The translations under genes were made by a program, and so were the position numbers. From Gammaproteobacteria bacterium (GTDB lineage Bacteria; Pseudomonadota; Gammaproteobacteria; Steroidobacterales; Steroidobacteraceae), in the NCBI GenBank assembly GCA_030037905.1, contig JASHPX010000117.1, forward strand, positions 108 to 64,107: DNA of 64,000 nucleotides, in the 5' to 3' direction. Below, in pieces: positions 7,963-47,104 of the stretch. The notes beneath the pieces are model-generated. The model was given only the letters and a program-made list of their open reading frames with translations, made no database searches and had not been told where the DNA came from. How positions within the stretch are numbered: position 1 is the stretch's first letter; each line of letters begins with the position of its first letter.

Positions 7963-7999
7963 CGCGCGGCCCATTGAACGCAGGACGAGCGAGGCGACT

Positions 8000-11816: not shown

Positions 11817-11826
11817 GGACATCTGC

Positions 11827-13812: not shown

Positions 13813-13825
13813 GGCGGCCTGGGCC

Positions 13826-15692: not shown

Positions 15693-15724
15693 CCGGCTCG
15701 GGGGGTGCCAATCGGGGGTGCCGC

Positions 15725-30074: not shown

Positions 30075-30080
30075 CGCTAC

Positions 30081-30923: not shown

Positions 30924-30979
30924 GGCTGCCAGTTTAGCAGCCGGTCGCGGCGACGCGTTGGCGCAGCGCGCCGTGTGGA

Positions 30980-32800
30980 TCAGCCGTGGTGCCGCGCCTG
31001 TTGCTCCTCCCGAATCCAGTCGCGTACCTGTTGGAGCATCGCGCGGAAGCGTTCACGCTGCACGTTCGACAGATGCGGCACACGCAGCGCGAGCTCGAGC
31101 TCCTGATTGGCGAGGCCGAGGTCGCCGTTGGCGAGATTGTACTGACCCATGTAGTAGTACGCGTCAGCGGTGTCGCCGGCGGCGTTTGCCGCCAGCGCAG
31201 TAAGCTGAATCTGCGGTGGGGTGGGCTCGACCAGGTTGAACAGGTCGAGCAGCAGCCGATGAGCCTGCTCGGGATTGCCGACCTTCATCAGCGTCTCGGC
31301 GTAATCGATGGTCAGCGGCACATTGTGGGGGAACAGCTCCTCCGCCTGCGCGAACTCGTCCAGCGACGCTCGGGTCTGGCCCGCTGCTGCGAGCGCCTGT
31401 CCGAGCGCCGAGTAGAGCAGCACCAGCTCGGGATACTTGGATCGCAGCTCGCGCAGCACCGGCACCGCCAGGGCGGCCTGTCCGCTGCGTATCTGTACGA
31501 GTGCCTGTCCGTAGCGCTCCGCCGGCGTCAAGGGTCGCGCGGCGCTCAGGCCCGCGTAGTACTGCGCGATATTGTCATCGGGCGTGGCCGCGAGCACGCG
31601 CACGCGTTCCTTGATGAAGGCGTAGCTCTCCGATTCGTAGTAGTGAGCCAGTCGCGGGAACTGCGAGGCCCGCTCGCGCGCGGCCGCGATACGCTCGGGT
31701 GTGACGGGATGGTCCTGCAGGATCGCGGGGATCTCGGTGCCCTGCAGGCCCTCGGACTGTGCCAGCCGCTCGAACATCGCGGCCATCTCGTTAGGGTCGA
31801 AGCCGGCGGCAGCGAGCAGCTGGATGCCCACGTAATCGGCCTCGATCTCTTCGCCGCGGGTGAAGTTGATGCTCTTCTGAAACGCCGCGGCCTGGGCCAC
31901 CGCTATAGCTCCCTCGGTCGCTTCGCCGTTGTTCGGGCCGTGGCTTGCGACCCCGATCAGCACCGCGGCCAGCATGGCTGCCATGGACTCCATCGACAGG
32001 TGCTCCTGGGCCACCAGGTCGCGCGCTATATGGCGCTGTACGACGTGACCGGTCTCGTGCGCCATGACGGCGGCGAGCTCAGCCTCACTGTTGGTCAGCA
32101 GGATCAAGCCGGTAAAGATGAAGACGTACCCGCCGAAGGTTGCGAACGAGTTGATTTCCGGATCGTTCATGCATTCGTAGTGAAACTGCTGATCCGGATC
32201 GTGCGCCTCGGAGGCCAGGCGCATGCCCAGCTGCTGCAGGTAGTCCTGGACCTCGGGGTCATCGAGCAGCAGATGCGCGTCGCGGATCTGCTTGATCACC
32301 ATCTCGCCGATCTCGGCCTCATCGCCGCGGCTCAGAGCCGCGTCTGCCGGACTGCCCAGGTCCGGCAGGCTGCCGAACAACTTGGTGTCGGAGGTCACGG
32401 TCTGCGGGACATCGACAGGCGGCAGGGTCGCCGTCCCGAGCGTGACATCGGTCTCGTTGACCGGAGGAGGTTGCGGGGCAGGGGTCGGCTTGGGATTGGT
32501 TGGATAGAGCGGATAGGGGTAATTGTTCTGCGGATAGGGCAGAGGCCCCCCCGTCCCCACCCCCGAGGGTGGTGCAGGGGCGGGCGCCGCCGAGTTGCCG
32601 GTCTGCGGGGACTGGGAGTCGGCGGAAGTCTGGGAGTCAGCGGAAGTCTGGGAGGCGGCCGCAGTCTGGGCGGCAGCGGCAGTCTGGGCGGCTGCCACGG
32701 TCCGGGAGGCAGCTCCGGGTAAATAACCACCCAGCGCAAAGCTCCACGAACTGCTCAGCATCAGCAGGCAGCCAACACAGGCAGCAAAGGTGCGGCGCAT
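30980..32800 (-). CDS. M48 metalloprotease with C-terminal TPRs (BepA/YfgC-like)
   Basis: 606 aa from ATG 32800, with AAGGA upstream. Signal peptide, HExxH (AHETGHVVQRH), and TPR-like C-terminal half. Unusual N-terminal hexapeptide repeats. Confidence 0.8.
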   Translation of the reverse strand: MRRTFAACVGCLLMLSSSWSFALGGYLPGAASRTVAAAQTAAAAQTAAASQTSADSQTSADSQSPQTGNSAAPAPAPPSGVGTGGPLPYPQNNYPYPLYPTNPKPTPAPQPPPVNETDVTLGTATLPPVDVPQTVTSDTKLFGSLPDLGSPADAALSRGDEAEIGEMVIKQIRDAHLLLDDPEVQDYLQQLGMRLASEAHDPDQQFHYECMNDPEINSFATFGGYVFIFTGLILLTNSEAELAAVMAHETGHVVQRHIARDLVAQEHLSMESMAAMLAAVLIGVASHGPNNGEATEGAIAVAQAAAFQKSINFTRGEEIEADYVGIQLLAAAGFDPNEMAAMFERLAQSEGLQGTEIPAILQDHPVTPERIAAARERASQFPRLAHYYESESYAFIKERVRVLAATPDDNIAQYYAGLSAARPLTPAERYGQALVQIRSGQAALAVPVLRELRSKYPELVLLYSALGQALAAAGQTRASLDEFAQAEELFPHNVPLTIDYAETLMKVGNPEQAHRLLLDLFNLVEPTPPQIQLTALAANAAGDTADAYYYMGQYNLANGDLGLANQELELALRVPHLSNVQRERFRAMLQQVRDWIREEQQARHHG

Positions 32801-32944
32801 AGAATCCTTCCAACGCGTCAGCCGCGGTTTGGACTTACCGTCTCCGAATGGGTTCCAGGCAGGCACGGTCCCCGCCGTCCCCGCCGTCTCCCGAGCTCCA
32901 CGCGCATCTGAGACGCCCCAGATACCCCGGACACCCCCCATACA

Positions 32945-34351
32945 CTACAACGCTTCCGAGGCATAGTCTGCCAGGCGCGAGCGCTCCCCCCGCACCAGCG
33001 TCACGTGCCCCGCATGTGGCCAGCCGCGAAAGCGATTCACGACATAAGTGAGGCCGCAGGTCGTTTCGGTCAGGTAGGGGGTGTCGATCTGCGCAATGTT
33101 GCCCAGGCACACCAGCTTGCTGCCGGGGCCGGCGCGGGTGACCAGTGCCTTCATCTGCTTGGGCGTGAGATTCTGGGCCTCGTCCAGGATGATGAAGCGG
33201 TTCAGGAAGGTGCGGCCGCGCATGAAGTTCAAGGAGCGGACTTTGATGCGGTTGCGCAGCAGATCATTGGTGGCCGCGCGACCCCAGCTGCCGCCCTCCT
33301 CGCTGTGCGTCAGAACCTCCAGGTTGTCCATCAGCGCGCCCATCCAGGGCTCCATCTTCTCCTCCTCCGTCCCGGGCAGGAACCCGATGTCCTCCCCGAG
33401 CGGCACGGTCACGCGCGTCATGATGATCTCGACGAAGCGATTGCGCTCGAGCGTCAGCGTGAGCCCCGCGGCAAGCGCGAGCAGCGTCTTGCCGCTGCCG
33501 GCCGGCCCGAGCAGTGTCACACAGTCGATATCCGGGTCGAGCAGCAGGTTGAGTGCGAAGCTCTGTTCGCGGTTACGCGCCGTGATACCCCAGACTCCGT
33601 GCCGCTCGCTGCGAAAATCACGCGTGAGCTCGAGCCGCGCCGCCTGCGCGTCCACGCTGCGCACGATCGCTTCGATCCCCTGGGGCTCCTCCTGATAGAC
33701 GAACAGGTTCGGCCACCAGGCATTCGCGGCCGGTCCGCTGATCTGGTACCAGGTGCGATCCGCCTCCTTCCACGAGCGCATGTCGCGGCCATGTCGCTCC
33801 CAGAAGTCCGCCGGCAGCAGTTGCACGCCGGTGTACAGCACGTCGGCATCTTCGATCGTGCGGTCGCTGTAGTAGTCCTCGGCGTGCACGCCCACGATCG
33901 CGGCCTTGATGCGCAGGTTGATGTCTTTGGACACCAGCGTCACGCGGGTCTGGGCTTCCTGGCGCTGCAGCGCCAGGGTTTGACCGAGGATCGCATTGTC
34001 GGCGCCGGCGCCGGGCAGCCCCTCGGGCAGTCCGGCCGACAGCGCGCGCGTCTGGAAGAATAGCCGCCCGCTGGGCGGTCGTTTGCCATGATTGCCGCTG
34101 AACCCCGATGGAATGACCAGCCCGGCGTCGATCTGCTCCTTGACGAGGTCACGCATCATGTCGTCGAGAAAGCGACTGACCTGGCGCGCGTTGCGCGAGG
34201 CCTCCGACATGCCCTTCTTGTTGGCGTCCAGCTCCTCGAGCACGACCATGGGCAGGTATACGTCGTGCTCCTCGAAGCGGAAGATGGCGGTCGGGTCGTG
34301 CATCAGCACATTGGTGTCGAGCACGAATAGCCGGCGGGGAGCGGACTTCAC
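32945..34351 (-). CDS. PIN-domain PhoH-like ATPase (PhoH2/YlaK-like)
   Basis: 468 aa from GTG 34351, which overlaps the bcp stop (GTGA). PIN motif LFVLDTNVLMHDP and P-loop LLGPAGSGKTLLA. The track ORF begins at TTG 34519 inside bcp. Confidence 0.85.
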   Translation of the reverse strand: MKSAPRRLFVLDTNVLMHDPTAIFRFEEHDVYLPMVVLEELDANKKGMSEASRNARQVSRFLDDMMRDLVKEQIDAGLVIPSGFSGNHGKRPPSGRLFFQTRALSAGLPEGLPGAGADNAILGQTLALQRQEAQTRVTLVSKDINLRIKAAIVGVHAEDYYSDRTIEDADVLYTGVQLLPADFWERHGRDMRSWKEADRTWYQISGPAANAWWPNLFVYQEEPQGIEAIVRSVDAQAARLELTRDFRSERHGVWGITARNREQSFALNLLLDPDIDCVTLLGPAGSGKTLLALAAGLTLTLERNRFVEIIMTRVTVPLGEDIGFLPGTEEEKMEPWMGALMDNLEVLTHSEEGGSWGRAATNDLLRNRIKVRSLNFMRGRTFLNRFIILDEAQNLTPKQMKALVTRAGPGSKLVCLGNIAQIDTPYLTETTCGLTYVVNRFRGWPHAGHVTLVRGERSRLADYASEAL

Positions 34352-34986
34352 AGCGATTCGGCGGCCGCCAGCACCGCTTGGGCGTGTCCACTCACCTGCA
34401 CCTTGCGCCATTCCCGGCGCAGCACTCCGTGCGAGTCGAGCAGGAAGGTGCTGCGCTCGACGCCGGGAAAGGAACGGCCATAGAGATGCTTCAGCCGGAT
34501 GACGTCGAACTGGCGGCAAATCGTCTCGTCGGCATCGGAAAGCAGCGCGAACGGGAATCCCATCTTGTCGCGGAACTTCTCGTGCGAGGCGAGGCTATCG
34601 CGCGAGATCCCCACGATATCGGTGCCGGCAGCGGCAAAGCGCGGCGCGAGAGCAGCGAAATCCCGTCCCTCGAGCGTGCAGCCGGGCGTGTTGTCGCGCG
34701 GGTAGAAGTAGATCACCAGCTTGCGGCCGCGCGCTTGCGACAGCTGCCAGTCGGAGCCGCCAGTGGCGGGAAGTGAGAAATCCGCCACGGCGGTCCCGAG
34801 CGCCACCGTGGCCGGCGCCTTCGGGCGGCTCGAGGCCGCGGGGCCGGTTGCCGCGGCGCGGCTCGCAGTCCTGCGGGCGCCTCGTCCCTGCCGAGCCTTG
34901 GTGATGTGCTCGCCGGCTCGGGCGTTGCGCGCCGTCGGCGGTGTGCGCGGTGTGCGCGGGGTTCGGGTGGTGCGGGGGCTGCTCAT
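34348..34986 (-). CDS. bcp: Peroxiredoxin Bcp (thiol peroxidase), possibly with a basic N-terminal extension
   Basis: Motif LVIYFYPRDNTPGCTLEG (peroxidatic Cys). ATG 34986 overlaps the gcvR-like stop (ATGA). An internal GTG at 34806 would give a standard ~152-aa Bcp. Confidence 0.85.
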   Translation of the reverse strand: MSSPRTTRTPRTPRTPPTARNARAGEHITKARQGRGARRTASRAAATGPAASSRPKAPATVALGTAVADFSLPATGGSDWQLSQARGRKLVIYFYPRDNTPGCTLEGRDFAALAPRFAAAGTDIVGISRDSLASHEKFRDKMGFPFALLSDADETICRQFDVIRLKHLYGRSFPGVERSTFLLDSHGVLRREWRKVQVSGHAQAVLAAAESL

Positions 34987-35525
34987 GATTTCACCGGTTC
35001 GAGGATGGCGTCCAGGTTCAGCGAGTCACAGAAGTCCATGAACTCCTCGCGCAGCTGCGCGATGTGCAGCTTGGCGGGCACCTGCACCACCATCTGCGTG
35101 GCGAACATGGGTGCACCGGTATGGGCCGCCGCATAGGCGCGCGTCGATACGTCACTGATATCGATCCCGCGGGAGGCGAAGAACCCCGATAACCCGGCGA
35201 CGATACCCGTCTGATCCAGGCTCACGATGTCTACGGAGTAGGGCAGCATGTCCGTACGAGCGGTGCGCGGCTCGGTGCGCTTCAGATGCACGCTGAGGCC
35301 GCTGCCGTCGGCCAGCCGCGTCAGCTCCGATTCGATGCGCGCCAGTGCATGCCAGTTGCCGCTCACCAGCAACAACATGGCGAACTCGGCGCCCAGCGCC
35401 GTCATGCGGCTCTCGGCGACGTTGCCACCACATTCACTGATGATGCGCGTAAGCTCGTGGACCATGCCCGTGCGGTCGCTACCGATGGCGGAGACGGCGA
35501 GATGCTGTTTCATCGGGTCGGACAT
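34983..35525 (-). CDS. gcvR: GcvR-like tandem ACT-domain regulator
   Basis: 180 aa from ATG 35525. MSDPMKQHLAVSAIGSDRTGMVHELTRIISECGGNVAESRMTALGAEFAMLLLVSG parallels the E. coli GcvR N-terminus. gcvR-bcp lies next to dapA, as in E. coli. Confidence 0.75.
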   Translation of the reverse strand: MSDPMKQHLAVSAIGSDRTGMVHELTRIISECGGNVAESRMTALGAEFAMLLLVSGNWHALARIESELTRLADGSGLSVHLKRTEPRTARTDMLPYSVDIVSLDQTGIVAGLSGFFASRGIDISDVSTRAYAAAHTGAPMFATQMVVQVPAKLHIAQLREEFMDFCDSLNLDAILEPVKS

Positions 35526-35660
35526 CGCAGTGGTGCCGGGCAGTGTACCGGGACTCAGGCGCCTTGCGAACGGCCAGAACCGCGCGGCTTGCGCCCGGGG
35601 ACCGCTGGCCCGTAACATCGCGCGCCCCGGGGTTCGTTTCAACGTATTCATAAGCTGAGA

Positions 35661-36656
35661 ATGTTTTCAGGCAGTCTGGTTGCAATCGTGACACCGATGC
35701 ACGCCGATGGCGGCATCGACTGGTCTGCTTGGGAACGGCTGCTCGAGCTGCACGTGACCGCCGGCACGGCGGGCATCGTCGTCGGGGGCACGACCGGCGA
35801 GGCGGCTACGCTCACCGAGGCGGAGCTGTTGCAGCTGCTCTCGCGTGCCCGGCCGCTGCTGCGTAATCGCGTGGCACTGATCGCGGGCGCCGGGGAGAGC
35901 AGCACGGCCGCCACGGTGGAGCGGGTGCGACGGCTATCGGCTGCAGGGGTCGATGGACTGCTGGTCGTGACGCCCGCCTACAACCGCCCGACGCAGGAGG
36001 GGTTGTATCGGCACTTCGAGGCCGTGGCGGCAGCCTCCGAGGTGCCCGTGGTGCTCTACAACGTTCCGACGCGCACGGCGGTCGATCTGCTCCCGGCCAC
36101 TGTCGCGCGCCTGGTGCAACTGCCGCGCATCGTGGCCATCAAGGAAGCCTGCTCGAGCGGGGCCGTGCAGCGCGTGCGCGAGCTCGTGAGCCTTACCCGG
36201 GATGCGCAGGGCAGCCGGTTCAGCGTGTTGTCCGGTGATGATGGCAGTTGCGCCGAGGCGATGCTCAACGGCGCCCGTGGCGTGATCTCCGTGACGGCGA
36301 ACGTCGTGCCCGAGGCGATGGTGCGGCTGTGTGCGCTGGCCACGAAGGCAGAGCGAACCGCGGTGCAGCAACTCGACGCTTGTTTGAATGCGCTGCACCA
36401 GGCGCTGTTCGTCGAAACCAGCCCGATTCCGGTCAAATGGACGTTGGCGCAGCAGGGACGTATCGGCCCGGGCATCCGCCTCCCTCTGACGCCGTTGTCC
36501 GAACCGCTGCACGCCCGCGTGCGCGCCGCGCTCGAGGGCACGCAGCGGCAGCTGCAAGCGCTGCAGCTGCCGGTCGCGGCGCCTGCACCGGTGCCGCCGG
36601 CCCTGGCGGGTGCCGCCGGTCACAAAGCGTCAGTCAGTCAGGCGAAGTTCGCGTGA
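35661..36656 (+). CDS. dapA: 4-hydroxy-tetrahydrodipicolinate synthase
   Basis: 331 aa. Motifs GSLVAIVTPM, GTTGEAATLT, VAIKEA (Schiff-base Lys context). Carries a ~35-aa Pro/Ala-rich C-terminal extension. Confidence 0.92.
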   Translation: MFSGSLVAIVTPMHADGGIDWSAWERLLELHVTAGTAGIVVGGTTGEAATLTEAELLQLLSRARPLLRNRVALIAGAGESSTAATVERVRRLSAAGVDGLLVVTPAYNRPTQEGLYRHFEAVAAASEVPVVLYNVPTRTAVDLLPATVARLVQLPRIVAIKEACSSGAVQRVRELVSLTRDAQGSRFSVLSGDDGSCAEAMLNGARGVISVTANVVPEAMVRLCALATKAERTAVQQLDACLNALHQALFVETSPIPVKWTLAQQGRIGPGIRLPLTPLSEPLHARVRAALEGTQRQLQALQLPVAAPAPVPPALAGAAGHKASVSQAKFA

Positions 36657-37000
36657 GGCATGCTCGTTGCGCAGAGCGCGCCAGGGGCGGTGCGCTGCTG
36701 GCCTGCCTGGCAGCCACGCTGCTGTTGCCGGGGTGCTCCCTGTTTCATCACAGGCAGCACAACGATGTCGGCTGTCGAAAGCCTTATTTCACCGGCAATG
36801 CACAGACTTTGGCGTCCCTGAAGGCTCCTCCGGGGCTGACTCTCCCCAATACCGCAGGGGGGGTCAAGATACCTACGCTCGACACGCCGGTGCCCGCACG
36901 GGCCCGCAGTGCGCCGTGCCTGTACTGGCCGCCCAACTACGTGCCGGAGTTGCCGACGCCGCCGATCCGTCGAACCGCGCCGGGCACGGCGGCGCAGTAG
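36653..37000 (+). CDS. Small lipoprotein in the BamC/NlpB position
   Basis: 115 aa from GTG 36653, which overlaps the dapA stop (GTGA). Lipobox LLLPGC. Pro-rich. It sits where bamC follows dapA in enterobacteria but is about one third of BamC length. Confidence 0.45.
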   Translation: MRHARCAERARGGALLACLAATLLLPGCSLFHHRQHNDVGCRKPYFTGNAQTLASLKAPPGLTLPNTAGGVKIPTLDTPVPARARSAPCLYWPPNYVPELPTPPIRRTAPGTAAQ

Positions 37001-37095
37001 AATCTGCCGCGGTCCAGGTGCGTGCAGCTGCGCGCGGACCCTGTGATAATTTGGATTCGCTAGTGTTTGTAAGACATTGAATGGAGAGGTAGAAC

Positions 37096-37187
37096 GGAGA
37101 GGTGGCCGAGCGGTCGAAGGCGCTGGACTGGAATTCCAGTAACATCTTCACGGGTGTTCGTGGGTTCGAATCCCACCCTCTCCGCCA
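37096..37187 (+). tRNA. tRNA-Ser (anticodon GGA)
   Basis: Hand-folded cloverleaf. Acceptor GGAGAGG/CCTCTCC, anticodon stem CTGGA/TCCAG with loop CTGGAAT, a long variable arm, T-arm GTGGG-TTCGAAT-CCCAC, discriminator G, and encoded CCA. Confidence 0.92.
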
Positions 37188-37191
37188 CCCG
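37168..37191 (+). repeat. Direct repeat, proximal copy (tRNA-Ser 3' end; att-like)
   Basis: gaatcccaccctctccgccacccg matches 43762-43785 at 23 of 24 positions in the same orientation. Confidence 0.85.
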
Positions 37192-37226
37192 CTCCAGGCG
37201 GTCAGGACCGATCGCTTGCAGGCCAC

Positions 37227-40088
37227 TTAAGGGATCGCTCCTGGGTCGGCCGGGACTGTCAACGTCTGCGGCGCGGCTTGCTTGATGCGACCCAACAACC
37301 ACGCGCGCTGGCGTTCGTTCCGGTTCTCGATCCTGGAGAGATCCCGCTCGAGATCGTGATCCCCCATTGCACGGGCACCCTGAAGGAGCGCGGCCACGCA
37401 AGCCGTGCTTTCATTCGTCATCAGCCACAGACGCTGAAGGTCGCGTAGCAATCCGAAGGGGGTTCGTGCCCGGCCGACGAGTGGTGTCCGGTCGAGCAGC
37501 TTCGATTCGCCGTCAGGCAGTTCGCCATGGGTCTTCACGTAGGGACGGATCGCGGTCGCGTTTTCGCGCGACCAGGTAATGAATAGCGCACTCTGCATGC
37601 CGACGTCCGGCGCGGTCGCGTGGCAGTCGCGCAGCTTCTCCCAGCCACGGACGAGGCGGTCCTCGCTGGTCAGCAACAGGCCAATGTAGTCGGCCAGATG
37701 CGTGCGGACTTCGTGTCTGCCCGCACGCTCCGCCGCGGCATCGTCGAGTTTGGACTCGTCCGGCTGCGCTAGCAGCGCGCCAGCCGCCTTCTGCAGCTTG
37801 ACGGCGGCGTATTTGAAATGCGGCTGCTTGCTGACAGGGTCCCACTCGTAGAGGGTGATCTCGTTGGCGGCGCGTGGCCGCCCCGGGTCGTCCCAGTAGC
37901 CATAGTGGAACGGCATGAACAGCGTGCCTGGCTCGATAGCGCCGATCCGCGCCGGCGCTTCTGCGACGCCGCGGCGGGAAGTGACGCGCAGCATCTCGCC
38001 TTCGGCGATGCCGAGACCGCGCGCATCGTCCTCGCTCACCTGGATGAAGGCGTCGGGTGCGGCGTCCCGCAGCGCCTTGGACCGTCCCGTCTTGGTGCGC
38101 GTGTGGAAGTGATAGACGACGCGCCCCGTGGTGAGGAAGAACGGATATTCCTCGTCCGGCTCCTCCGTCGGCGGGACATATTCGACCGGACGCAGCAAGG
38201 CGCGCCCGTTCGGTTCTCTCGCGCGATACTCCTCCGCCGTGATCGCCGCTCCCGTCAGCAGGTCGTGACCGTAGCTTTCACAGTAATTCGGATCGGTGTC
38301 GAAGGTGAGGTCGGTGTAATAGCGGACCGAGCCGTGCGGATGCTGCTCGTTAGCCGGCCAGGGGATGCCCGAACCCTCGCTCAGCTTCGCATAGGAGAGG
38401 CCGGAATAGTCGCACGGCCTGCCGCGCGAGCATTCGCGCCAGGCGTTGAATGCGCCTTCGGCGTCCGTCCACTTGATCAGCGCTGCACCGTCCTTATCGC
38501 GGAAATCCATGCGCCGGGCGAAATCGAGGAATATATCGAGGTCCGACCGCGCCTCTCCGGGCGGCTCGATCGCCTTGTGATTCAAATGCACGACACGGTT
38601 GACATTGGTCGAGCAGCCGGTCTTCTCGCCCCAGATCGCCGCAGGCAGCACCACATCGGCCATCTGCGTCGTCTCGGTCATGAACGCGTCCTGCGCGATC
38701 ACGAACACGTCCTGCCTGCGCAGAATCGCGCGCAACCGGTTCAGGTCCGAGAACGAGACCGCCGGGTTTGTTCCCACGACCCACAGCACCTTGATCGAGC
38801 CGGCCTCGGCATAATGAAAGATCTCCAGCGCATGGGTCGCCGCGCTCCAATTCGGCAAGGTAGCCGGCTCGACGTTCCACAGCTTCGCGAGCTCTTCGAT
38901 GTGGCGAGGGTTGGCGAAATTGCGAAAACCCGGCAGGTCACCGCCTGTCCCGGTTTCGCGGCTGTTCTGAGCGGTGGGCTGGCCGTTCATTTGCAGGATG
39001 GCGCAGCCGGGTCGGCCGATTCGGCCCAGCACCAGGTTGACATTGTTGACCTGCACGGCTGCTGCCGTGCCCTGGTTGGACTGGTAGACCCCTTGCAGGC
39101 AGGTGGTCAGCAGCATCCGGGAGCGGCCGATCATGGCCGCCGCCTGCCGGAGTTGCTCGGCGGGGATCTGCGCAATCTGGGCGACTCGTTCAGGCGTGTA
39201 GGAGGCGACGGTGCGGGCCAGATCGTCGAAGCCGATCGTATGAGTGTCGATGAAGGCGCGGTCGGCGAAACCCTGTTCGATCAGCTGCTGGATCAGGCCG
39301 TTCAGCACCGCGACATTGGTGCCGAGTCGCGGCGTGATATGCAGATCCGCCTCCGCCGCCGTCGCCGTGCGGCGCGGGTCGATCGCGATCATGCGTGATG
39401 GGGCGGTCGCACGCCGGCGGTCGAGTACCCGTGCCCACAGCACCGTCGCGGTCGCAGCCATGTCGTGACCGACCAGCAGAAAGCAATCCGTGACGTCGAT
39501 GTCTTCGTAGGCGCCCGGCTGACCGTCGGACCCGAATGTCTCCTTGAGCGCAGCGCCGGCCGTCGCCGTGCACAGGCGCGTGTTGCCGTCGACGTGCAGT
39601 GTGCCGATACCGGCTTTCGCGATGACACCGAGCGTATAGTTCCCCTCGGCGAACAACTGCCCGGAGGTGTAAAACCCGATGGAGCCGGCCGTATAGCGTT
39701 GCTTTGCGTCCTTCACGCGCCGGACGATCAGGTCCATCGCGTCGTCCCAGCTCGTGCGCTCGAGTCGGCCATGACGGCGGACGAGCGGGTAAGTCAGCCG
39801 GTCGGCGCTGGCATTGGCCTCCCAGCCGTGCAGGCCCTTGGGACCGAGGCGGCCGCGATTGACCACATCCACCTCCCGCCCGCGCACGCCGACGATGCGC
39901 CCACCCGGCCGATCATCTTTGACGCCGATATCGATTCCGCAACCGTTCGAGCACAGAAAGCAGCACGCCTGCACCCAGCGATCGGGTGGCTCGTCGAGGT
40001 TCTGATCCACCCGTACCGGCCAATGCCCGTCCAATGGCGGCGTGCGCGGTCCCCAGATGTCGGCGACACTGTCACGGCTGCTGGCCAC
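37227..40088 (-). CDS. Molybdopterin (bis-MGD) oxidoreductase, Nas/NarB-like catalytic subunit with an extra ~185-aa C-terminal domain
   Basis: 953 aa. GTG 40088 lies 1 nt after the encapsulin stop. N-terminal 4Fe-4S motif CCFLCSNGCG (CxxCxxxC). Mo-ligand context GNTRLCTATAGAAL...YEDIDVTDCFLLVGHD. C-terminal MopB barrel YPFFLTTGRVVYHFHTRTKTG. The residues after ...AAVKLQKA are unassigned. Confidence 0.75.
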   Translation of the reverse strand: MASSRDSVADIWGPRTPPLDGHWPVRVDQNLDEPPDRWVQACCFLCSNGCGIDIGVKDDRPGGRIVGVRGREVDVVNRGRLGPKGLHGWEANASADRLTYPLVRRHGRLERTSWDDAMDLIVRRVKDAKQRYTAGSIGFYTSGQLFAEGNYTLGVIAKAGIGTLHVDGNTRLCTATAGAALKETFGSDGQPGAYEDIDVTDCFLLVGHDMAATATVLWARVLDRRRATAPSRMIAIDPRRTATAAEADLHITPRLGTNVAVLNGLIQQLIEQGFADRAFIDTHTIGFDDLARTVASYTPERVAQIAQIPAEQLRQAAAMIGRSRMLLTTCLQGVYQSNQGTAAAVQVNNVNLVLGRIGRPGCAILQMNGQPTAQNSRETGTGGDLPGFRNFANPRHIEELAKLWNVEPATLPNWSAATHALEIFHYAEAGSIKVLWVVGTNPAVSFSDLNRLRAILRRQDVFVIAQDAFMTETTQMADVVLPAAIWGEKTGCSTNVNRVVHLNHKAIEPPGEARSDLDIFLDFARRMDFRDKDGAALIKWTDAEGAFNAWRECSRGRPCDYSGLSYAKLSEGSGIPWPANEQHPHGSVRYYTDLTFDTDPNYCESYGHDLLTGAAITAEEYRAREPNGRALLRPVEYVPPTEEPDEEYPFFLTTGRVVYHFHTRTKTGRSKALRDAAPDAFIQVSEDDARGLGIAEGEMLRVTSRRGVAEAPARIGAIEPGTLFMPFHYGYWDDPGRPRAANEITLYEWDPVSKQPHFKYAAVKLQKAAGALLAQPDESKLDDAAAERAGRHEVRTHLADYIGLLLTSEDRLVRGWEKLRDCHATAPDVGMQSALFITWSRENATAIRPYVKTHGELPDGESKLLDRTPLVGRARTPFGLLRDLQRLWLMTNESTACVAALLQGARAMGDHDLERDLSRIENRNERQRAWLLGRIKQAAPQTLTVPADPGAIP

Positions 40089-40089
40089 G

Positions 40090-40914
40090 TCATTCTCCCA
40101 TCGGCTGCTTTTTCTCGTCGGGGGAGAGCACGACAGCAGCCTCGCTCGTCAGCAGCCGGAACGTGAAGGTCTCCAGAAAGTACAGCTCGACGGCCGTGCT
40201 GGAATGGCTCGAATACCCGATGGAGATGTCCTGACCGATGTCCAGCTCGAAATCACCGCTGCGAGTCGTGAGCACGAATCCGCCCTCGATGGCGGGTGCC
40301 CAGATGATCCCTGCATCCACCTCGCGCTCGAGATGGTGAAAGACCGGGTAGCCTTCGTCGGTTCCCCCGCTCGCGGCGGTGTACGCGTCGGCCCCGAGCA
40401 CGAGCGCATACGGTCCATTGACGCCCGCCAGTCGCAATTGGCTGACCGCGTGCGCAACAGCGCCCGGATAGCCCCGGATATTGGCGGGGAGGGCGATCTT
40501 CGGATTGCTGCTGCCTGCACGGATGCCCTGAATTCCCGCAGCGATATAGCCGTCGAAGACGGCGCGATCTTCTGCGAAGGCAATCGTGCGTGCGGCTTGC
40601 TTCACCGGTGACCAGTCCGAGTCCGTGGCGCCTCGCCCGACATCGTCAATCGCCTGCCGTGCGAGCTCGAAGGGAACGCGCAGCTCGACGATCGCTTTCG
40701 CGTCGCGTTGAGCAGCCTGGATGCCGTCGCCGGGGGCCTGGATCGGATGAAGATGTCCGGTGCCCACAGCCGCCAGGTCCAGCCCTCTCGGGTCGGGCAC
40801 ATCGACGACCCGCCGCGCCGCCAAATGGCGCTTGAGGGTGCGGGAGGCCTCCTGCTCGATCTGAGCCCAGGCCTTGTCGGAGATGGGGGCGAGTTCCCGA
40901 TGGAGATTGTTCAT
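40090..40914 (-). CDS. Family-1 encapsulin shell protein (linocin M18-like, HK97 fold)
   Basis: 274 aa from ATG 40914, which overlaps the DyP stop (ATGA). The N-terminus MNNLHRELAPISDKAWAQIEQEASRTLKRHLAARRVVD is the characteristic encapsulin start. The 439-aa track ORF is an upstream extension into dyp. Confidence 0.85.
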   Translation of the reverse strand: MNNLHRELAPISDKAWAQIEQEASRTLKRHLAARRVVDVPDPRGLDLAAVGTGHLHPIQAPGDGIQAAQRDAKAIVELRVPFELARQAIDDVGRGATDSDWSPVKQAARTIAFAEDRAVFDGYIAAGIQGIRAGSSNPKIALPANIRGYPGAVAHAVSQLRLAGVNGPYALVLGADAYTAASGGTDEGYPVFHHLEREVDAGIIWAPAIEGGFVLTTRSGDFELDIGQDISIGYSSHSSTAVELYFLETFTFRLLTSEAAVVLSPDEKKQPMGE

Positions 40915-42089
40915 GTCTTGTCTCTTGGTCTGAGAGAACCGATACCGAGCGACCCGTCTGTGCAGAGCGGACGCGTTGACGGCCTGTCCGCCGCCGGTAG
41001 TGCGTGCGGCGTCTTCCCGCCATCGGGCGATGGAGATGGACTGTGCGTTGCGACGTGGTCGAGGAAGCCCGCCGTCGGCACGAAGAACAGCGTGCCCGTG
41101 ACGGCGTGGCTGAAATCGAGCAGGCGATCGTAGTTGCCCGGGGGCCGTCCGACAAACATGTTCTCCAGCATCTGCTCGATCCGGTGCGGCGAACGGGCGT
41201 AGCCGATGAAATAGGTGCCGAACTCGCCCTTGCCGATCTCCCCGAAGGGCATGTTGTCGCGCAGGATTTCGAGCTGCTGCCCGTCCTCGATGATCGTGGT
41301 CAGTGCGTTGTGCGCCGAGGCCGGTTTTACGGCGTCGTCCAGCTCGACATCGGAGAGCTTCTTTCGGCCGATGATTTTCTCCTGTTCCTCGATCGGCAAT
41401 GCATTCCATCGTGTCAGATCGTGCAGATACTTCTGCACGATCACATAGCTTCCGCCGGCGAATGCGGCATCTTCTTCTCCGATGATGGCGGCTCTGATGG
41501 CGGCCTCTTCCGCCGGATTCTCCGTGCCGTCCACGAAACCGATCAGGTCGCGGTCATCGAAGTAATTGAAACCGTGCACCTCGTCCGCCGTCGAGACCGC
41601 TCCAACCAGCCGCGACATGATCTGCGTCGCCAGTTCGAAGCACAGATCCATGCGTGCGGAGCGGATGTGAAACAGGATGTCTCCCGGCGTCGAGACCGCA
41701 TGGTGCACGCCGCGGATTTCACGGAAGGGGTGCAGGCCTGCGGGTTTGGGCGTACCGAAAAGTCTATCCCAGGCGTCGGAACCGAAAGCCATGACGCAGG
41801 AAAGCCGTCCCTCCAGGTCCCGGAAGCCCACCGTGCGCAGAAGTGCGGCCAGATCGCCACACAAGGCACGCACCGCGGCCTCACTACCGCCCCCGGCGTT
41901 GATCGTCACGATGAGGAAGATCGCCGCACGCGTGAGCTGTGCCACGACAGGTTGTGGGGCAACCGATGCCACACCGGCCGTGTTGCCGGCGCGCCCGGGC
42001 TCCCGGCCGTTGTCAGCGGCGGGATCTGCCGGCGAAGCCTGTCGGCCGGACGGGCAGCACGGGAGTGTGTTGGCGCGCAACGCTGGCAT
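40911..42089 (-). CDS. DyP-type peroxidase with a C-terminal encapsulin cargo-loading peptide
   Basis: DyP GxxDG motif GFVDGTENP, plus IFLIVTINAGG and FGTYFIGYARS. C-terminal ...DGSLGIGSLRPRDKT matches the SLGIGSL-type targeting peptide. The start is uncertain: ATG 42089 gives a ~40-aa N-terminal extension. Confidence 0.85.
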   Translation of the reverse strand: MPALRANTLPCCPSGRQASPADPAADNGREPGRAGNTAGVASVAPQPVVAQLTRAAIFLIVTINAGGGSEAAVRALCGDLAALLRTVGFRDLEGRLSCVMAFGSDAWDRLFGTPKPAGLHPFREIRGVHHAVSTPGDILFHIRSARMDLCFELATQIMSRLVGAVSTADEVHGFNYFDDRDLIGFVDGTENPAEEAAIRAAIIGEEDAAFAGGSYVIVQKYLHDLTRWNALPIEEQEKIIGRKKLSDVELDDAVKPASAHNALTTIIEDGQQLEILRDNMPFGEIGKGEFGTYFIGYARSPHRIEQMLENMFVGRPPGNYDRLLDFSHAVTGTLFFVPTAGFLDHVATHSPSPSPDGGKTPHALPAADRPSTRPLCTDGSLGIGSLRPRDKT

Positions 42090-42098
42090 CCGGGCGAA

Positions 42099-43259
42099 TC
42101 AGGTCAGCTTGTAGGATTGGGCGCCCGTGCCGGCGAGTGCCCCACCGGCAACGATGAGATATTCCTCGCGGATCGGGGTTGCGCCGAAATGGCTCTGCAG
42201 GATCTCCAGCGTGCCGGCCGCATAGCGTGCCTGCGCGGACAGCGAGCTGCCGGAGATATGCGGTGTCATGCCATTGAAAGGCATGGTTCGCCAGGGATGA
42301 TCCGCCGGTGCAGGCTGCGGGAACCACACGTCACCGGCGTAGCCGGCGATACGGCCGGACGCGAGAGCACGCACGACGGCGTCGCGCTCGAACAGCTTCC
42401 CGCGCGCCGTGTTGATGAGGTAGGCCCCGCGTTTCATCTTGGCGAACATTCTGTCGTCGAAGAAGTGTTCAGTCGAGGGGTAGAGCGGCATATGCACGTC
42501 GATGATATCGACGGCGCCCACGAGCGACTCCGCGTCGGGATGGAACGTCAGGTCCAGCTCCTTCTCGATCTGCGGGCTGAGCCGGTGCGGATCGCTATAG
42601 TGCAGGTGCAGATCGAAGGGTTTCAGGCGACGCAGCACTGCAAGACCGATCCTGCCGGCTCCGATTGCACCGAAGTGCATGCCTTCGATGTCGTAGCTGC
42701 GCGCCGCGCAGTCCGCGATGTTCCACCCACCATAGGTTGCGATCCCGTGTGATGGCAGGTAATTGCGCACCAGCGACAGCACCATCATCACGGCATGTTC
42801 TGCCACGCTGATGCTGTTGGAGCCGGTGACCTCGGCTACCGTGACGTGAGCGCGTGCGGCGGCGTCGAGATCGACATGATCGGAACCGATACCGGCGGTC
42901 ACGGCGAGTTTCAGCTTCTTCGCCTTCGCGATCCGCTCCTTGGTCAGGTATGCCGGCCAGAACGGTTGGGAGATGACTACTTCCGCGTCCGGCAGGTGCC
43001 TTTCGAACTCCGAGTTCGGGCCATCCTTATTGCTGGTCACGATCAGCTCGTGGCCAAGCTTCTCCAGGTAGCCGCGAAGGCCGAGCTCACCCGATACGCA
43101 TCCGACGAGCTCGCCCGGCTTGAATCCAAGGGGTCCCTTCGGGGTAGGCGCGGTTTGGCCGTTGGCGTAGCGGGTGATGGTCGGGATGTCGTCCCTGGGA
43201 TAGAGGGGTGGGTATCCCGTTTCCGGATCCGGATAAAGGACACACAGAATCTTCGCCAT
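42099..43259 (-). CDS. fdh: NAD+-dependent formate dehydrogenase (D-2-hydroxyacid dehydrogenase family)
   Basis: 386 aa from ATG 43259. Near-collinear with classical FDH: MAKILCVLYPDP...VISQPFWPAYLT...AGIGSDHVDL...SISVAEHAVMMVLSLVRNY...GAGRIGLAVLRRL...GDVWFPQPAP...GGALAGTG. Confidence 0.92.
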   Translation of the reverse strand: MAKILCVLYPDPETGYPPLYPRDDIPTITRYANGQTAPTPKGPLGFKPGELVGCVSGELGLRGYLEKLGHELIVTSNKDGPNSEFERHLPDAEVVISQPFWPAYLTKERIAKAKKLKLAVTAGIGSDHVDLDAAARAHVTVAEVTGSNSISVAEHAVMMVLSLVRNYLPSHGIATYGGWNIADCAARSYDIEGMHFGAIGAGRIGLAVLRRLKPFDLHLHYSDPHRLSPQIEKELDLTFHPDAESLVGAVDIIDVHMPLYPSTEHFFDDRMFAKMKRGAYLINTARGKLFERDAVVRALASGRIAGYAGDVWFPQPAPADHPWRTMPFNGMTPHISGSSLSAQARYAAGTLEILQSHFGATPIREEYLIVAGGALAGTGAQSYKLT

Positions 43260-43761
43260 AAGGGTTCGCAGCACAGAAGAAGCCGGATGGGCACTATACC
43301 CCGCTGCGTGACGAACAATCGCGGGCGAAGGGTGGCTGGTCAGCCTTGCGTACACACCTATGAGCTGTAGCTCCCCGGAGTTGCGAGCCTGTGAAGAAGC
43401 CGCCGCCGCGATTCCAATGCTAGTCGGCCGACTCCGAGTCGCCCGTAATGCCCGTATCGGCACTTCCGAGAACTACCGGTGTATACACTGCGAGGACCAG
43501 GCTCAGCCGCGCACTGTCGATGGCGAGATCGCCGACCCGTAGGCACGGAAATCTTCAAACCCGACACGGACAGGATGCCGGAGGTCCGTCAGCGGCTCAT
43601 GAAAGCTGCGACTGATGAAGCAAGCGCCCGAATAGGCGCGCGGCGGTGCAGCAGTGGCAGTAATGACGTCCGTGCGTAGTCGGATTTACGCACACGAGCG
43701 TCGGGAATATCGAGAAACGGCCGCAGGCCGGCCCCGAAGGGGCGAGGCGCGCAGCGCCGAT

Positions 43762-43785
43762 GAATCCCACTCTCTCCGCCACCCG
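43762..43785 (+). repeat. Direct repeat, distal copy (partial tRNA-Ser 3' end; att-like)
   Basis: gaatcccactctctccgccacccg has one C>T difference from 37168-37191. No tRNA body lies upstream of it. Confidence 0.85.
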
Positions 43786-44023
43786 TTGCTCCCAGTCGAG
43801 TTTGAGCTGGTCTTGAAGGTCCTGGACACATCCTGCCAGCTCAATCGCACCTGCGGCGGCGGACCACGCCGCGCTGGCGCGGGCATCTGCTCGCGAGTGC
43901 CTCGATCCGACTTATACTGGCGTGCACGGCCGGCGTGCGCGTACGGCCCCCGGATGGTCAGGACGGCCGAGACGGCCGGCGATAGCGTCGAGGCCGTGAG
44001 GCCGGATTGCGGGGAATACCTCG

Positions 44024-44773
44024 ATGAGAATGAGATATTTGCTGGCTGCGCTGCTCGTGGGGGCCGCCTGCGCGGGCGGCGCGATTGCGGCGCGTGCTCA
44101 GGGCGCAACCGGTCATGCTCATCCGGCCGCCTTCCCCAAGGGGCACTATGGAACCCTCGATTCCCTGCCGGATTGGGGTGGAGTGTGGGTACTCAATTTC
44201 ACACGCCCGGGAGCCGATGAGCAGCCTGCGCTCAAGGGCAAGTACCTGGCGGATTATCAGACGTGGGTGCAGCAGGTCAAAGCCACTCATGGCAATGTTC
44301 CCCACGAAGGCTCGTATTGCCTGGCACCCGGCATGCCGATCATGATGGGCGTGGGCCAATATCCGATCGAATTCCTGTTCACCCCGGGGCGGGTGACCAT
44401 CCACTTCGAGGCGTGGATGCAGTGGCGCAATATCTTCACCGATGGGCGCGGACATCCGGATGCGGATGATCTGGACCCGACGTTCTATGGCGATTCCATC
44501 GGGCATTGGGAGGGCGGCACGCTGGTGGTCGATACGGTCGGGATCAAGACCGTCACCCGTCTCTCCCAGGGAATGGAGCACAGCGACAAGCTACATCTCA
44601 TCGAGCACATTCACCTGGCGAAGAACGACCCTAACACGCTGGTCGATGAGATGACCATGGAAGATCCCGATGCGCTCGCGAAGCCATGGCACCTGGTGCA
44701 CACCTACCGGCGTTCTCGCGACATGAATCTGCTCGAGTTCATGTGCGAAGAGAACGACCGCACCATTCAGTGA
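44024..44773 (+). CDS. Secreted protein of unknown function (paralog 1)
   Basis: 249 aa with a signal peptide MRMRYLLAALLVGAACAGGAIAARA. It shares CxxPGMPxxM, G(D/E)SIGHWEG(G/H)TLVVDT and C-terminal Cys-containing blocks with 44936-45826. Confidence 0.6.
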   Translation: MRMRYLLAALLVGAACAGGAIAARAQGATGHAHPAAFPKGHYGTLDSLPDWGGVWVLNFTRPGADEQPALKGKYLADYQTWVQQVKATHGNVPHEGSYCLAPGMPIMMGVGQYPIEFLFTPGRVTIHFEAWMQWRNIFTDGRGHPDADDLDPTFYGDSIGHWEGGTLVVDTVGIKTVTRLSQGMEHSDKLHLIEHIHLAKNDPNTLVDEMTMEDPDALAKPWHLVHTYRRSRDMNLLEFMCEENDRTIQ

Positions 44774-44850
44774 TGCCGCAGACTGGAGCGGGGGAGCGGG
44801 TGCGCTGCCCGCGGGGGGCGCCTGAAGAACCCGGTGGCCGCGGAGGCGCC

Positions 44851-44905
44851 GGTGCCAGGGCCGGTGCGGGTGCCCGGGCCGGCGCGGATGCCAGGGCCGG
44901 CGTCG
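44851..44905. repeat. Imperfect 18-bp tandem repeat x3 in a convergent intergenic region
   Basis: ggtgccagggccggtgcg / ggtgcccgggccggcgcg / gatgccagggccggcgtcg, read directly. Confidence 0.7.
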
Positions 44906-44935
44906 GGGCCGCCCCGGTCGGGTCCATCGGATTGC

Positions 44936-45826
44936 CTACTTGGAAGCAGCGGAGCCGGTCGGTTTGACCGAATCGTCGACGCGCTGCGCTGCCTCGTCGC
45001 CTTCCCGGGTGCCCGGCAGATTCTGGTTCAGATTCGGCGGGCACTCGACCTCCGGAATGTCGCTGTAATCCTCGCGCATCCAGCGCTTGGTACTGCGCCA
45101 TTCACCCTTCCAGTTCTTTGGATCGGTCATGATGTATTCGATCTGCAGCGTCTTGCCCTGGTCCAGCAGAGTCATTCTCTCCACGATGTGGAACTGGTCG
45201 CTGATCGGCAGGCCGTTGTCGATCCAATGCTGATTCGGCTCGAAGTACTTGGTGTCCACCACCAGGGTGTGGCCCTCCCAGTGGCCGATGGATTCGCCGT
45301 TATAGGTCGGGATGGCCAGATCCGGGTCGGTATGCGGCCGGCCATCCAGGTAGATGAGCCGCAGGCTGTTCGTGAAGCCGAACACCATCTCGACCACGGT
45401 GGGTAGCTGAATGATGTTGATGGGCCAGACCCGTGTCATGATCATCGGCATGCCGGCCGGATAGCATTCGGCGATGCTGTCGCGGTACGGCTCGTGGGCC
45501 TTGGCCGCCGCCGTGGCCGCCCGCATGGCCGCCTGTCCGGCGGCGTAGAACTGCGGATAGGGCGGCCCGAACATGAAGTCGCTGAACGATCTGCGCAAAT
45601 CGATGAACCAGGTGCCGGTCATGTTGAACGGAGGCTTGGGTCGGGGCTTCGCCAGATTCTCCGGTGCGAGCGCGCCGTAATAACCGTCGTGCTTCTGCGC
45701 CAGCTCGTCTATCTTGTCCGGGCTGAGGCCCCCCCCTCGAGGGGCCTGGGCCATGGCGGTTCCGCCGAGCACCACCAAACCCAGCGCCAAGGCGCTGACG
45801 AGACTACCGCGACCCGATGAAGTCAT
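44936..45826 (-). CDS. Secreted protein of unknown function (paralog 2)
   Basis: 296 aa with a signal peptide. ECYPAGMPMIM...NGESIGHWEGHTLVVDT...EVECPPN aligns with paralog 1. Last gene of a three-gene minus-strand unit. Confidence 0.6.
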   Translation of the reverse strand: MTSSGRGSLVSALALGLVVLGGTAMAQAPRGGGLSPDKIDELAQKHDGYYGALAPENLAKPRPKPPFNMTGTWFIDLRRSFSDFMFGPPYPQFYAAGQAAMRAATAAAKAHEPYRDSIAECYPAGMPMIMTRVWPINIIQLPTVVEMVFGFTNSLRLIYLDGRPHTDPDLAIPTYNGESIGHWEGHTLVVDTKYFEPNQHWIDNGLPISDQFHIVERMTLLDQGKTLQIEYIMTDPKNWKGEWRSTKRWMREDYSDIPEVECPPNLNQNLPGTREGDEAAQRVDDSVKPTGSAASK

Positions 45827-45888
45827 GGCGTTCCCCCGAACAACAAATACGGCCGTCTACCAGGGTACTACCGCGGCCTGAGCGCGGG

Positions 45889-46278
45889 TCACTGCGGGGG
45901 CCCCGGCGCCGGCTTGCCCAGAGTTTTGCCGTTCGCCAGTATGATCCCGACATACGAGCCGCCTGCCCGCCCGTCGCGCAGCGGCAGCATGGTCACAGTC
46001 ACCTTGTCGCCCAGCTTGAGGGTGAAGCGCCGCCAGCCTTCGTGAATGAGATTATTCGGGCTGCCCATTTCCACCGACCAGATCTCGGTGGCCCCCGCGG
46101 CGTTCACGGTGCTCACCTTGAAGCTGGCGTGCGGGTTCGTCCAATTGAATTCGGTGACCGTACCGGTGACGTTGATGTGCTTGGTCGTGTCGAACATCGC
46201 GTAGGAGTGATGTACCCACGCCGGCGTCGAGAACGAGGCCAGTATCAGGCCGCACGCCGTGATCACCAGAGCTTTCAT
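45889..46278 (-). CDS. Small secreted protein; predicted mature N-terminus HHSYAMFD (DUF6152-like by recollection)
   Basis: 129 aa from ATG 46278, with GGAG upstream. Signal peptide MKALVITACGLILASFSTPAWV, then HHSYAMFD...FNWTNPH. Paralog of the next gene. Confidence 0.6.
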   Translation of the reverse strand: MKALVITACGLILASFSTPAWVHHSYAMFDTTKHINVTGTVTEFNWTNPHASFKVSTVNAAGATEIWSVEMGSPNNLIHEGWRRFTLKLGDKVTVTMLPLRDGRAGGSYVGIILANGKTLGKPAPGPPQ

Positions 46279-46334
46279 GGCACTACTCCTCGGCGCGAGC
46301 CTCATCCGGGTCCCTACCTGCCGCTCCCGGGGCG

Positions 46335-46739
46335 CTACTTCACCACGGGCACATTGATCGGGGCGTTGCCGCGGCGGGTCGGATCCAGGATCATCGAACC
46401 GTCGGGCAGCTTGACGCTGACGAACAGGCCACCCTTGCGGCCGTCCCGCAACGGATTGATGACGACGGTGACCTGGTCCCCCGGCTTCAATGTCCGCGAC
46501 CTCCAGCCCTGACGCCGCAGATTGTTGACGCTGTTCATCTCGATCTGCCAGGTTTGGACGCCGCCGTCGGAGCGGCGCACGTCCAGGAAGATCCAGGAGT
46601 GGGGATTGGTCCACTGAAACTGGAGGACGGTGCCCTGCAGGGAAAGCTGCCGCGCCTGGTCGAACATTGCAAAGGAGTGATGTGCCACGGCGGCGTTTGC
46701 CAGAGCCAGAGCCAGCAGCCCGGCTGCGCACCCGCCCAT
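46335..46739 (-). CDS. Small secreted protein; predicted mature N-terminus HHSFAMFD (paralog)
   Basis: 134 aa from ATG 46739 (ATG 46799 is also possible). Signal peptide ...LLALALANAAVA, then HHSFAMFD...FQWTNPH. Confidence 0.55.
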   Translation of the reverse strand: MGGCAAGLLALALANAAVAHHSFAMFDQARQLSLQGTVLQFQWTNPHSWIFLDVRRSDGGVQTWQIEMNSVNNLRRQGWRSRTLKPGDQVTVVINPLRDGRKGGLFVSVKLPDGSMILDPTRRGNAPINVPVVK

Positions 46740-47104
46740 GAGCCGTATCTTCGGCGCAAGCCTCCGGGGCGCTTCATCCTTGGGGGGACCTAACCGCATT
46801 GCCGAAGTCCGTGTGGCCTGATGGATCGATCTGACTACTGCCATTTTTGATTATGCTCGCTTTTTTCTTTCATCGCGCGGCTGCGCGACCGTCCCGGGCA
46901 CGGGGGGCCGCGCCTGAAGTATGCCGCCCACGTGGGGGAAAGTCTCATGCGGGGCCAACGGGTTAGGTGTGGGCAGGGCATGTCGATGTCCGGCGCACGA
47001 CGTATCATCATGCATGCGGCTCGCCGCCGTCTGCTGTGGGTTTTCGTGTCTATGCGTCATTGCCGAGCGGGGCGGCGCGTGAAAGTCGCCATAGGAGACT
47101 GCTG

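Follow-up and report, generated by a model that had tools for sequence, protein, structure and literature searches.

The window analysed here, a 64-kb stretch of contig JASHPX010000117.1 from a gammaproteobacterium, holds a sole tRNA gene (by both ARAGORN and Rfam), a tRNA-Ser(GGA) which lies downstream of dapA (35661-36656), as it does among relatives. Between this gene and a short element resembling the RtT tRNA-trailer units of Escherichia coli sit four minus-strand genes (hereafter, the cassette), which are transcribed toward the tRNA-Ser, i.e. convergently with it. As the 3' end of the tRNA recurs at the far end of the RtT-like element, a first-pass annotation took the two copies for the attL and attR sites of an integrase-less islet; the origin of this repeat, and of the segment that it bounds, is the subject of what follows. 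The region is composed of these features:

37096-37187, plus strand: tRNA-Ser(GGA) gene with encoded CCA (ARAGORN; Rfam tRNA, 61.5 bits)
37168-37191, plus strand: repeat copy 1 (GAATCCCACCCTCTCCGCCACCCG), T-loop through 3' end of the tRNA and the CCCG that follows
37188-37226: 39-nt spacer from the tRNA 3' end to the stop codon of the convergent molybdenum (Mo)-oxidoreductase gene
37227-40088, minus strand: molybdopterin oxidoreductase, nitrate-reductase-like, 953 aa (Pfam PF04879/PF00384/PF01568)
40090-40908, minus strand: family 1 encapsulin shell protein (Pfam Linocin_M18, E 1e-90)
40911-42089, minus strand: DyP-type peroxidase, longest open reading frame (ORF; Pfam Dyp_perox_N/C)
42099-43259, minus strand: NAD-dependent formate dehydrogenase-like D-2-hydroxyacid dehydrogenase (fdh-like gene), 386 aa, the first gene of the cassette (Pfam 2-Hacid_dh, 2-Hacid_dh_C)
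43260-43662, no strand assigned: 403-nt region upstream of the fdh-like gene, without recognisable content
43663-43785, plus strand: RtT-like tRNA-trailer element of ~120 nt, with three small GC hairpins, a conserved core (GCCGCAGGC..CCCCGAAGGGGCGAGGCGCGCAGCGCCGA) and a copy of the tRNA-Ser 3' end
43762-43785, plus strand: repeat copy 2, the tail of the RtT-like element, with T at 43771 (by sequence match to copy 1)
43786-44023: 238-nt spacer without homology to relatives
44024-46844: native Steroidobacteraceae block (conserved hypothetical protein R1, a 296-aa protein, DUF6152), the right boundary of the lineage-specific region

Copy 1 consists of the last 20 nt of the tRNA-Ser and the CCCG that follows, and copy 2 matches it in the same orientation at 23 of 24 positions (the single mismatch being C37177 versus T43771), with 6594 nt separating the CCA end of the tRNA from that of copy 2. 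This part of the first-pass annotation was borne out by a re-scan of the 64 kb, in which the two copies were the sole matches at up to 3 mismatches, while none of 100 shuffled sequences gave two (0 expected by chance). A relaxed scan found no third, decayed copy of the tail inside the segment (next best match, 15/20), promoter and terminator scans around both copies found nothing, and the spacer at 37188-37226 has neither a terminator-like site nor any sequence homologous to relatives' trailers. No integrase, excisionase, transposase or resolvase was detected by Pfam in ~57 ORFs of the window (small ORFs at 43589-44220 included; the scan covered nearly its whole length, a few syntenic ORFs at 600-8000 being left out), which agrees with the earlier failure to recognise any integrase, excisionase or transposase by inspection.

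The RtT-like element and its tail

RtT units were first described in the tyrT operon of E. coli, as GC-rich structured units of ~110-180 nt that lie behind a tRNA gene and end, each of them, with the last 19 nt of tRNA-Tyr (CCA included). In E. coli, the transcript that carries the tRNA also contains these units, and processing of this tyrT transcript sets them free; PGAP names the E. coli rttR 'RtT sRNA, processed from tyrT transcript'. Complete E. coli genomes (L163, L171) differ in how many units follow tyrV (between 1 and 5), and K-12 carries a fourth unit in the tyrT-tyrV spacer.

In the window, the Rfam RtT model (RF00391) aligned over its full span to positions 43663-43781, with 26.4 bits and an E-value of 0.0099 (901-nt search). 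A better match was obtained for the corresponding element of the related locus L018 (34.9 bits, E 4e-5), none was obtained for L042, and at the gathering threshold 0 of 7 relatives reached RtT. Since the Rfam matches were sub-threshold, the homology was tested independently, using models of our own. Model R2, a sequence-only model made from the window and 10 relatives (with no E. coli sequence) and ending at AATCC(C), before the tRNA-specific tail, found all four RtT units of the E. coli reference (the K-12 tyrT-tyrV-rttR locus, L163) at their exact positions, with E-values of 3e-9 to 3e-8. The window element and an E. coli unit share 63% identity overall and 72% over a core of ~60 nt (46/64). 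Model R1 detected exactly one copy in the window (43672-43785, 86 bits) and recovered an element absent from its training, directly behind the tRNA-Ser of L095 (66.5 bits), the core of which is nearly identical to that of the window element; in L095 the T variant of copy 2 is present both in the tRNA-Ser and in the tail of the element.

The tail of the window element reproduces 18/19 of the last ~19 nt of tRNA-Ser (with CCA). As the ~100 nt upstream of copy 2 are RtT-type, and a tail of this kind is what defines RtT, the second repeat copy is, judged by homology, the intrinsic tRNA-like tail of an RtT-type element. Hence the contents ascribed earlier to the segment hold for the four-gene operon and fail for the ~500-bp non-coding leader (43260-43761), the last ~100 nt of which are part of the RtT-like element. 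Regarding structure, nothing is claimed beyond the Rfam alignment: the fold of 43663-43785 was not significantly more stable than that of shuffled sequences (z -1.35), and the RNAalifold consensus of alignment A1, which comprised 6 pairs only, was not used as evidence. Because of the 6.5-kb gap and the convergent operon within it, co-transcription and trailer processing appear unlikely in the window; the detached copy is probably no longer co-transcribed with tRNA-Ser and may be a relic.

The tRNA-Ser(GGA) locus in relatives

Related loci were fetched by means of the neighbouring dapA gene, which yielded 160 loci on genome and metagenome contigs. The best relatives obtained in this way were Steroidobacteraceae and other gammaproteobacterial metagenome-assembled genomes, with DapA identities of at most 73%. 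The order dapA, tRNA-Ser(GGA) recurred in 37 of the 38 related loci scanned, and in the closest relatives the tRNA was followed by the signal recognition particle RNA gene (ffs), starting 14-51 nt on, and then by dnaX. Synteny across these loci establishes, as far as the available relatives reach, that the ancestral order was tRNA-Ser, ffs, dnaX.

A second copy of the tRNA 3' end was found downstream of tRNA-Ser in 12 related loci that are free of the islet (11 distinct ones, since L098 duplicates L018), with 84-198 nt between the CCA ends. In all of them (L018/L098, L020, L023, L028, L030, L031, L042, L104, L133, L152 and L095) the element lies directly behind the tRNA-Ser and, where present, it sits precisely between tRNA-Ser and ffs. 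The tails match the last 19 nt of their partner tRNA at 17-19 positions, and the ~45 nt to the left of the second copy are kept between these loci and the window (...CCCGAAGGGGCGAGGCGCGCAGCGCCGA..AATCC). The occurrence of the tRNA/trailer repeat in islet-free relatives means that the repeat was not made by the arrival of the 6.5-kb segment, against the earlier reading of the two copies as attachment sites left by integration.

The alleles of the tails are informative as well. In L030, L031, L133 and L095 the tail follows the local tRNA allele (T at tail position 7 in the first three, and T at position 9 in L095, each shared with the locus' own tRNA-Ser), which is the case neither in L152 nor in the window, where the tail has the T9 allele (43771) whereas the tRNA-Ser has C9. 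This suggests concerted evolution of tRNA and trailer that was relaxed after their separation, or else another origin of the window element. The repeat unit includes post-CCA trailer sequence in E. coli, L042 and L133, as tandem duplication would give.

Several further observations concern these loci. The element of L104 (11377-11574) carries an RtT core that is internally duplicated in tandem, and weak RtT-like matches (E 0.005-0.09) occur upstream of tRNA-Ser in L042 (11304-11417) and L020 (11237-11457). The Xanthomonas small RNA family sX4 (RF02223) gave sub-threshold matches over the tRNA-Ser and its trailer in L018 (11265-11416; 44 bits) and L042 (11450-11594; 28 bits), compared with a gathering score of 70, and sX4 may perhaps be another tRNA-Ser-linked trailer family. 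In L014, a ~6-kb glcDEF-like (FAD-oxidase/CCG) cluster and a GDT1 transporter gene (9820-16000) lie between tRNA-Ser and dnaX; this cluster has neither a tail repeat nor an integrase, and its presence suggests that the tRNA-Ser/ffs junction is simply a site of gene-cluster turnover.

Origin of the cassette and of the present arrangement

The cassette genes were found downstream of dapA-tRNA-Ser in none of the 160 related loci. Their closest homologues are in Alpha- and Betaproteobacteria, as opposed to the flanking DapA, for which the best matches (at most 73%) come from Steroidobacteraceae and other Gammaproteobacteria alone. Those of the Mo-oxidoreductase (77-84% aa identity) include Enhydrobacter, Hyphomicrobiales, Rhizobiales and Candidimonas, whereas the closest named homologues of the encapsulin (83-88%) belong to Hyphomicrobiales, Xanthobacteraceae, Stellaceae and Bradyrhizobium, its best match overall (93%) being a metagenome contig. 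The same four-gene order recurs in L162 (preceded by a LysR gene) and in the P0267 contig (preceded by two-component regulators), and other arrangements of the cassette genes were encountered in L161, L172 and Candidimonas; no mobile-element genes were seen in any of these contexts. Nucleotide homology between the window and L162 (72-83%) is confined to coding sequences and ends where they end, with identities of 82.7% for the Mo-oxidoreductase and 80% for the fdh-like gene (against the 386-aa gene of L162).

The GC content at third codon positions (GC3) of the cassette lies at 0.76-0.81; the other window genes that were compared span 0.63-0.87 (the syntenic core genes 0.80-0.87), and 79% of random native gene sets show a greater codon-usage distance than the cassette does. 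The earlier impression that the segment is as GC-rich as its flanks was therefore correct, and the codon statistics proposed as a check likewise gave no foreign signal. As there is no compositional signal, a lateral origin is argued from homologue taxonomy and synteny only; from these, the four-gene cassette was probably acquired laterally as a unit from outside the family, which is consistent with the first-pass view of the segment as acquired.

Upstream of the fdh-like gene, the 43260-43662 region gave no gene remnant, promoter-consensus match or homology to L162, and neither the integrase remnants for which a check had been proposed earlier nor a remnant of LysR or of any other gene was found when 43260-43785 was searched. 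In L162, the contig with the cassette most like that of the window, a tRNA-Glu(CTC) gene (1373-1448) precedes fdh by 1.8 kb, with a thioesterase gene and the LysR gene coming after it; the 3' end of this tRNA has no repeat within the 9.6-kb contig.

The right flank is not that of the relatives either. Both ffs and dnaX are absent from the window, the sequence of which, right of 37188, matches no relative's tRNA-downstream sequence. Beyond the RtT-like element, sequence native to the family resumes with the block that begins with protein R1 (homologues in Steroidobacteraceae), where positions 44035-46830 are collinear, at 83-85% nucleotide identity, with L164 and L168-L170; in these loci the genes left of the block differ from those of the window. 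The tRNA on one side and the R1 block on the other delimit a lineage-specific stretch of 37188-44023, and the locus is, by this comparison, rearranged on both sides of the RtT-like element.

Four things are established, namely what the repeat is, which gene order is ancestral, that the cassette is specific to this lineage and that the scanned ORFs lack recombinase genes. From these we reason (with a probability of roughly 0.7) that the repeat belongs to a tRNA/RtT pair and predates the cassette, which was lodged by a route that makes no repeat, ffs-dnaX being replaced by further rearrangement. The repeat would thus consist of the 3' end of tRNA-Ser(GGA) and the tRNA-like tail of an RtT-type trailer, both in place before the cassette. 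The four genes would have come to lie between tRNA-Ser and the RtT-like element, in convergent orientation to the tRNA, presumably by a non-att route (recombination, either illegitimate or mediated by repeats, while the locus was being rearranged), and the ancestral downstream neighbours, ffs and dnaX, would have given way to another native gene block. The two observations that the first-pass annotation had itself named as fatal to an islet (the operon present at this position in all relatives, or the 24-mer dispersed through the genome) were not made; the explanation put forward here is a third one.

Several points weigh against this reading. The element and its tRNA are 6.5 kb apart, which is so in no other known case, and this separation calls for two breakpoints, one on each side of a 120-nt element. 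Its Rfam RtT score (26.4) does not reach the gathering score of 45. The relatives closest by DapA (L001-L017) are without the RtT-like element, so that its ancestral presence in this lineage is not proven, and no relative is close enough to show an empty site (best DapA identity, 73%). The codon usage and GC3 of the cassette are indistinguishable from those of native genes. Finally, the repeat runs 4 nt (CCCG) beyond the CCA, for which the chance worked out from base composition is ~1%; such an extension would be allowed by duplication and by an att core alike.

If the copies were nevertheless att sites, the segment would be an integrase-less islet akin to a cis-mobilizable element (CIME), the RtT-like core and tail would form the attR-proximal end of a family that targets tRNA 3' ends, and the short elements of relatives would be empty or decayed forms of what, in the window, is loaded with cargo and mobilisable by an integrase encoded elsewhere. 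The geometry would fit, as an intact tRNA on the left faces a co-oriented copy starting in the T-loop (AATCC) on the right, and so would the presence/absence polymorphism of the short element exactly at the tRNA 3' end among relatives, the apparent lateral acquisition of the cassette, and a core that is common to E. coli (tRNA-Tyr) and Steroidobacteraceae (tRNA-Ser) with a tail matching the local tRNA. We nonetheless regard both the islet and its mobilisation in trans as distinctly unlikely: no integrase was found among the ORFs scanned across the 64 kb, the left ends beside the tRNA are not conserved among the elements, the repeat is present in islet-free relatives, the repetition of trailer sequence beyond the CCA in E. 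coli, L042 and L133 bears the mark of tandem duplication, and the right flank of copy 2 is not the ancestral tRNA-downstream sequence (ffs-dnaX), which a true attR would require. Moreover, no RtT-like sequence was found, at blastn sensitivity, in 50,697 phage and 72,556 plasmid records (except in one Salmonella chromosomal contig filed in the phage collection), and the other contexts of the cassette are without mobile-element genes. A bolder version of the same thought, in which RtT-type elements are miniature, non-autonomous units with tRNA 3' ends as their insertion sites (the conserved core would travel, and the tail would be dictated by the target tRNA or match it), seems to us improbable, and equally so its corollary that the 6.6-kb segment is a cargo version, held between the tRNA and RtT tails and still excisable or mobilised in trans. 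Should it be true, it would provide a mobile-DNA explanation for the 35-year-old RtT oddity of E. coli and a new integrase-less way of moving operons beside tRNA genes.

Alternatively, nothing may have been inserted. Recombination of the tRNA tail with the tail of an RtT unit elsewhere in the genome, in the form of an inversion or translocation, may have placed an already existing block (cassette, RtT-like element and native R1 genes) beside the tRNA-Ser and moved ffs-dnaX away. Synteny is indeed lost from 37188 to the end of the window, well beyond the 6.6 kb, the right-hand genes are native to the family yet have different left neighbours in each close relative, CCCG follows both copies, and tails of 19-24 nt are plausible (if short) substrates for recombination. 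We consider this course of events, in either of its parts, unlikely, given that the 64 kb contain one RtT-like copy and one tRNA-Ser, that 20 nt of identity is short for RecA-dependent exchange, and that the position of the closest cassette homologues outside the family would be left unexplained. That copy 2 arose by chance, or is what is left of a tRNA-Ser pseudogene formed by duplication, has next to no probability, even in a GC-rich genome with GC-rich tRNA 3' ends. Chance is rejected by the 100 shuffles, none of which gave a second match, and a pseudogene by the ~100 nt upstream of copy 2, which are homologous to RtT and not to the body of tRNA-Ser; a tRNA at copy 2 is rejected too, as ARAGORN and Rfam find none there.

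Some observations lie apart from these questions. A ~20-kb block of the window (9136-29350) is absent at this place in relatives, in which the genes corresponding to ~420-9100 abut those of ~29350-37200. The block holds a hopanoid-type cluster (squalene/phytoene synthase, squalene-hopene cyclase, PNP_UDP_1, NAD-epimerase, YdjC, B12 radical-SAM, GT21 and DUF3463 radical-SAM) together with dxs, a CrtC-like protein and a MacB-type permease, and no mobile-element genes were found in it. Further on, a DUF6036 nucleotidyltransferase gene (59085-59609, minus strand) and a 167-aa ORF without family match (to 60119) may constitute a toxin-antitoxin-like pair.

Comparison with known systems

The cargo itself can be set apart from the repeat question. 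As in family 1 encapsulin-DyP systems, the Linocin_M18 shell gene immediately follows a DyP gene, the product of which ends in ...GSLGIGSLRPRDKT (as read from the translation), presumably a GSLGIGSL-type targeting-peptide motif. The true start of the DyP gene may be downstream of that of the longest ORF; homology of the DyP gene to L162 begins at 41958. Encapsulin and DyP together form an ordinary family 1 system, and what distinguishes the operon is that a formate dehydrogenase-like dehydrogenase and a nitrate-reductase-like Mo-enzyme flank it in a kept four-gene order. The C-terminal extension of the Mo-oxidoreductase (~190 aa) has no Pfam match. All homologues of this protein keep the length that includes the extension (943-1020 aa), and its gene adjoins encapsulin/DyP in the window, L161, L162, L172 and probably the P0267 contig, while standing alone in Candidimonas. 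The cassette would be an ordinary, though neat, case of an operon acquired as a unit.

In islands and CIMEs that target tRNA genes, the att core of the tyrosine recombinase spans the T-loop to the 3' end. The segment resembles them in that one border has a complete tRNA and the other a partial copy of its 3' end in the same orientation, with accessory cargo in between that relatives lack, and a direct repeat of the tRNA 3' end (23/24) does stand at both borders. It differs in that no integrase or excisionase (or any other recombinase) was found among the ORFs scanned in it and in the rest of the 64 kb, that its composition does not deviate from the host's, that its distal flank is not ancestral and its repeat not a product of integration (being found also in relatives without the cargo), and that an RtT-type RNA element, in place of an AT-rich att arm, lies beside the distal copy. 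Judged by what defines a genomic island, the segment does not qualify as one. Direct repeats of tRNA 3' ends, which are routinely taken as proof of integrase-mediated insertion, have, as this case shows, a second and little-known source in RtT-type trailers, by which island predictors that rely on tRNA-fragment repeats can be misled.

With RtT, the window element shares the core (GCCGCAGGC...CCCGAAGGGCGA(A/G)GCGCGCAGCGC(T/C)GA..AATCC) followed by the partner tRNA's 3' end with CCA, an identity to the tRNA that starts at AATCC in the T-loop, and the strand of the tRNA. The differences reside in the partner (tRNA-Ser(GGA) versus tRNA-Tyr in E. coli), in the number of units (a single one versus 1-5 tandem units of 178 bp), in the host (a Steroidobacteraceae-type gammaproteobacterium) and in the distance from the tRNA, which amounts to 6.5 kb in the window, whereas the units of relatives and of E. 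coli lie directly downstream. Of the marks of membership, core homology and the tRNA tail are present, while the Rfam gathering score and adjacency to the tRNA are lacking in the window. These findings extend RtT-like elements beyond the enterobacterial tyrT locus to a distant gammaproteobacterial family, with another partner tRNA and with tails that track its alleles, and thereby supply comparative material for RtT. On present sequence evidence the element is homologous to RtT in both core and tail, and is best named RtT-like.

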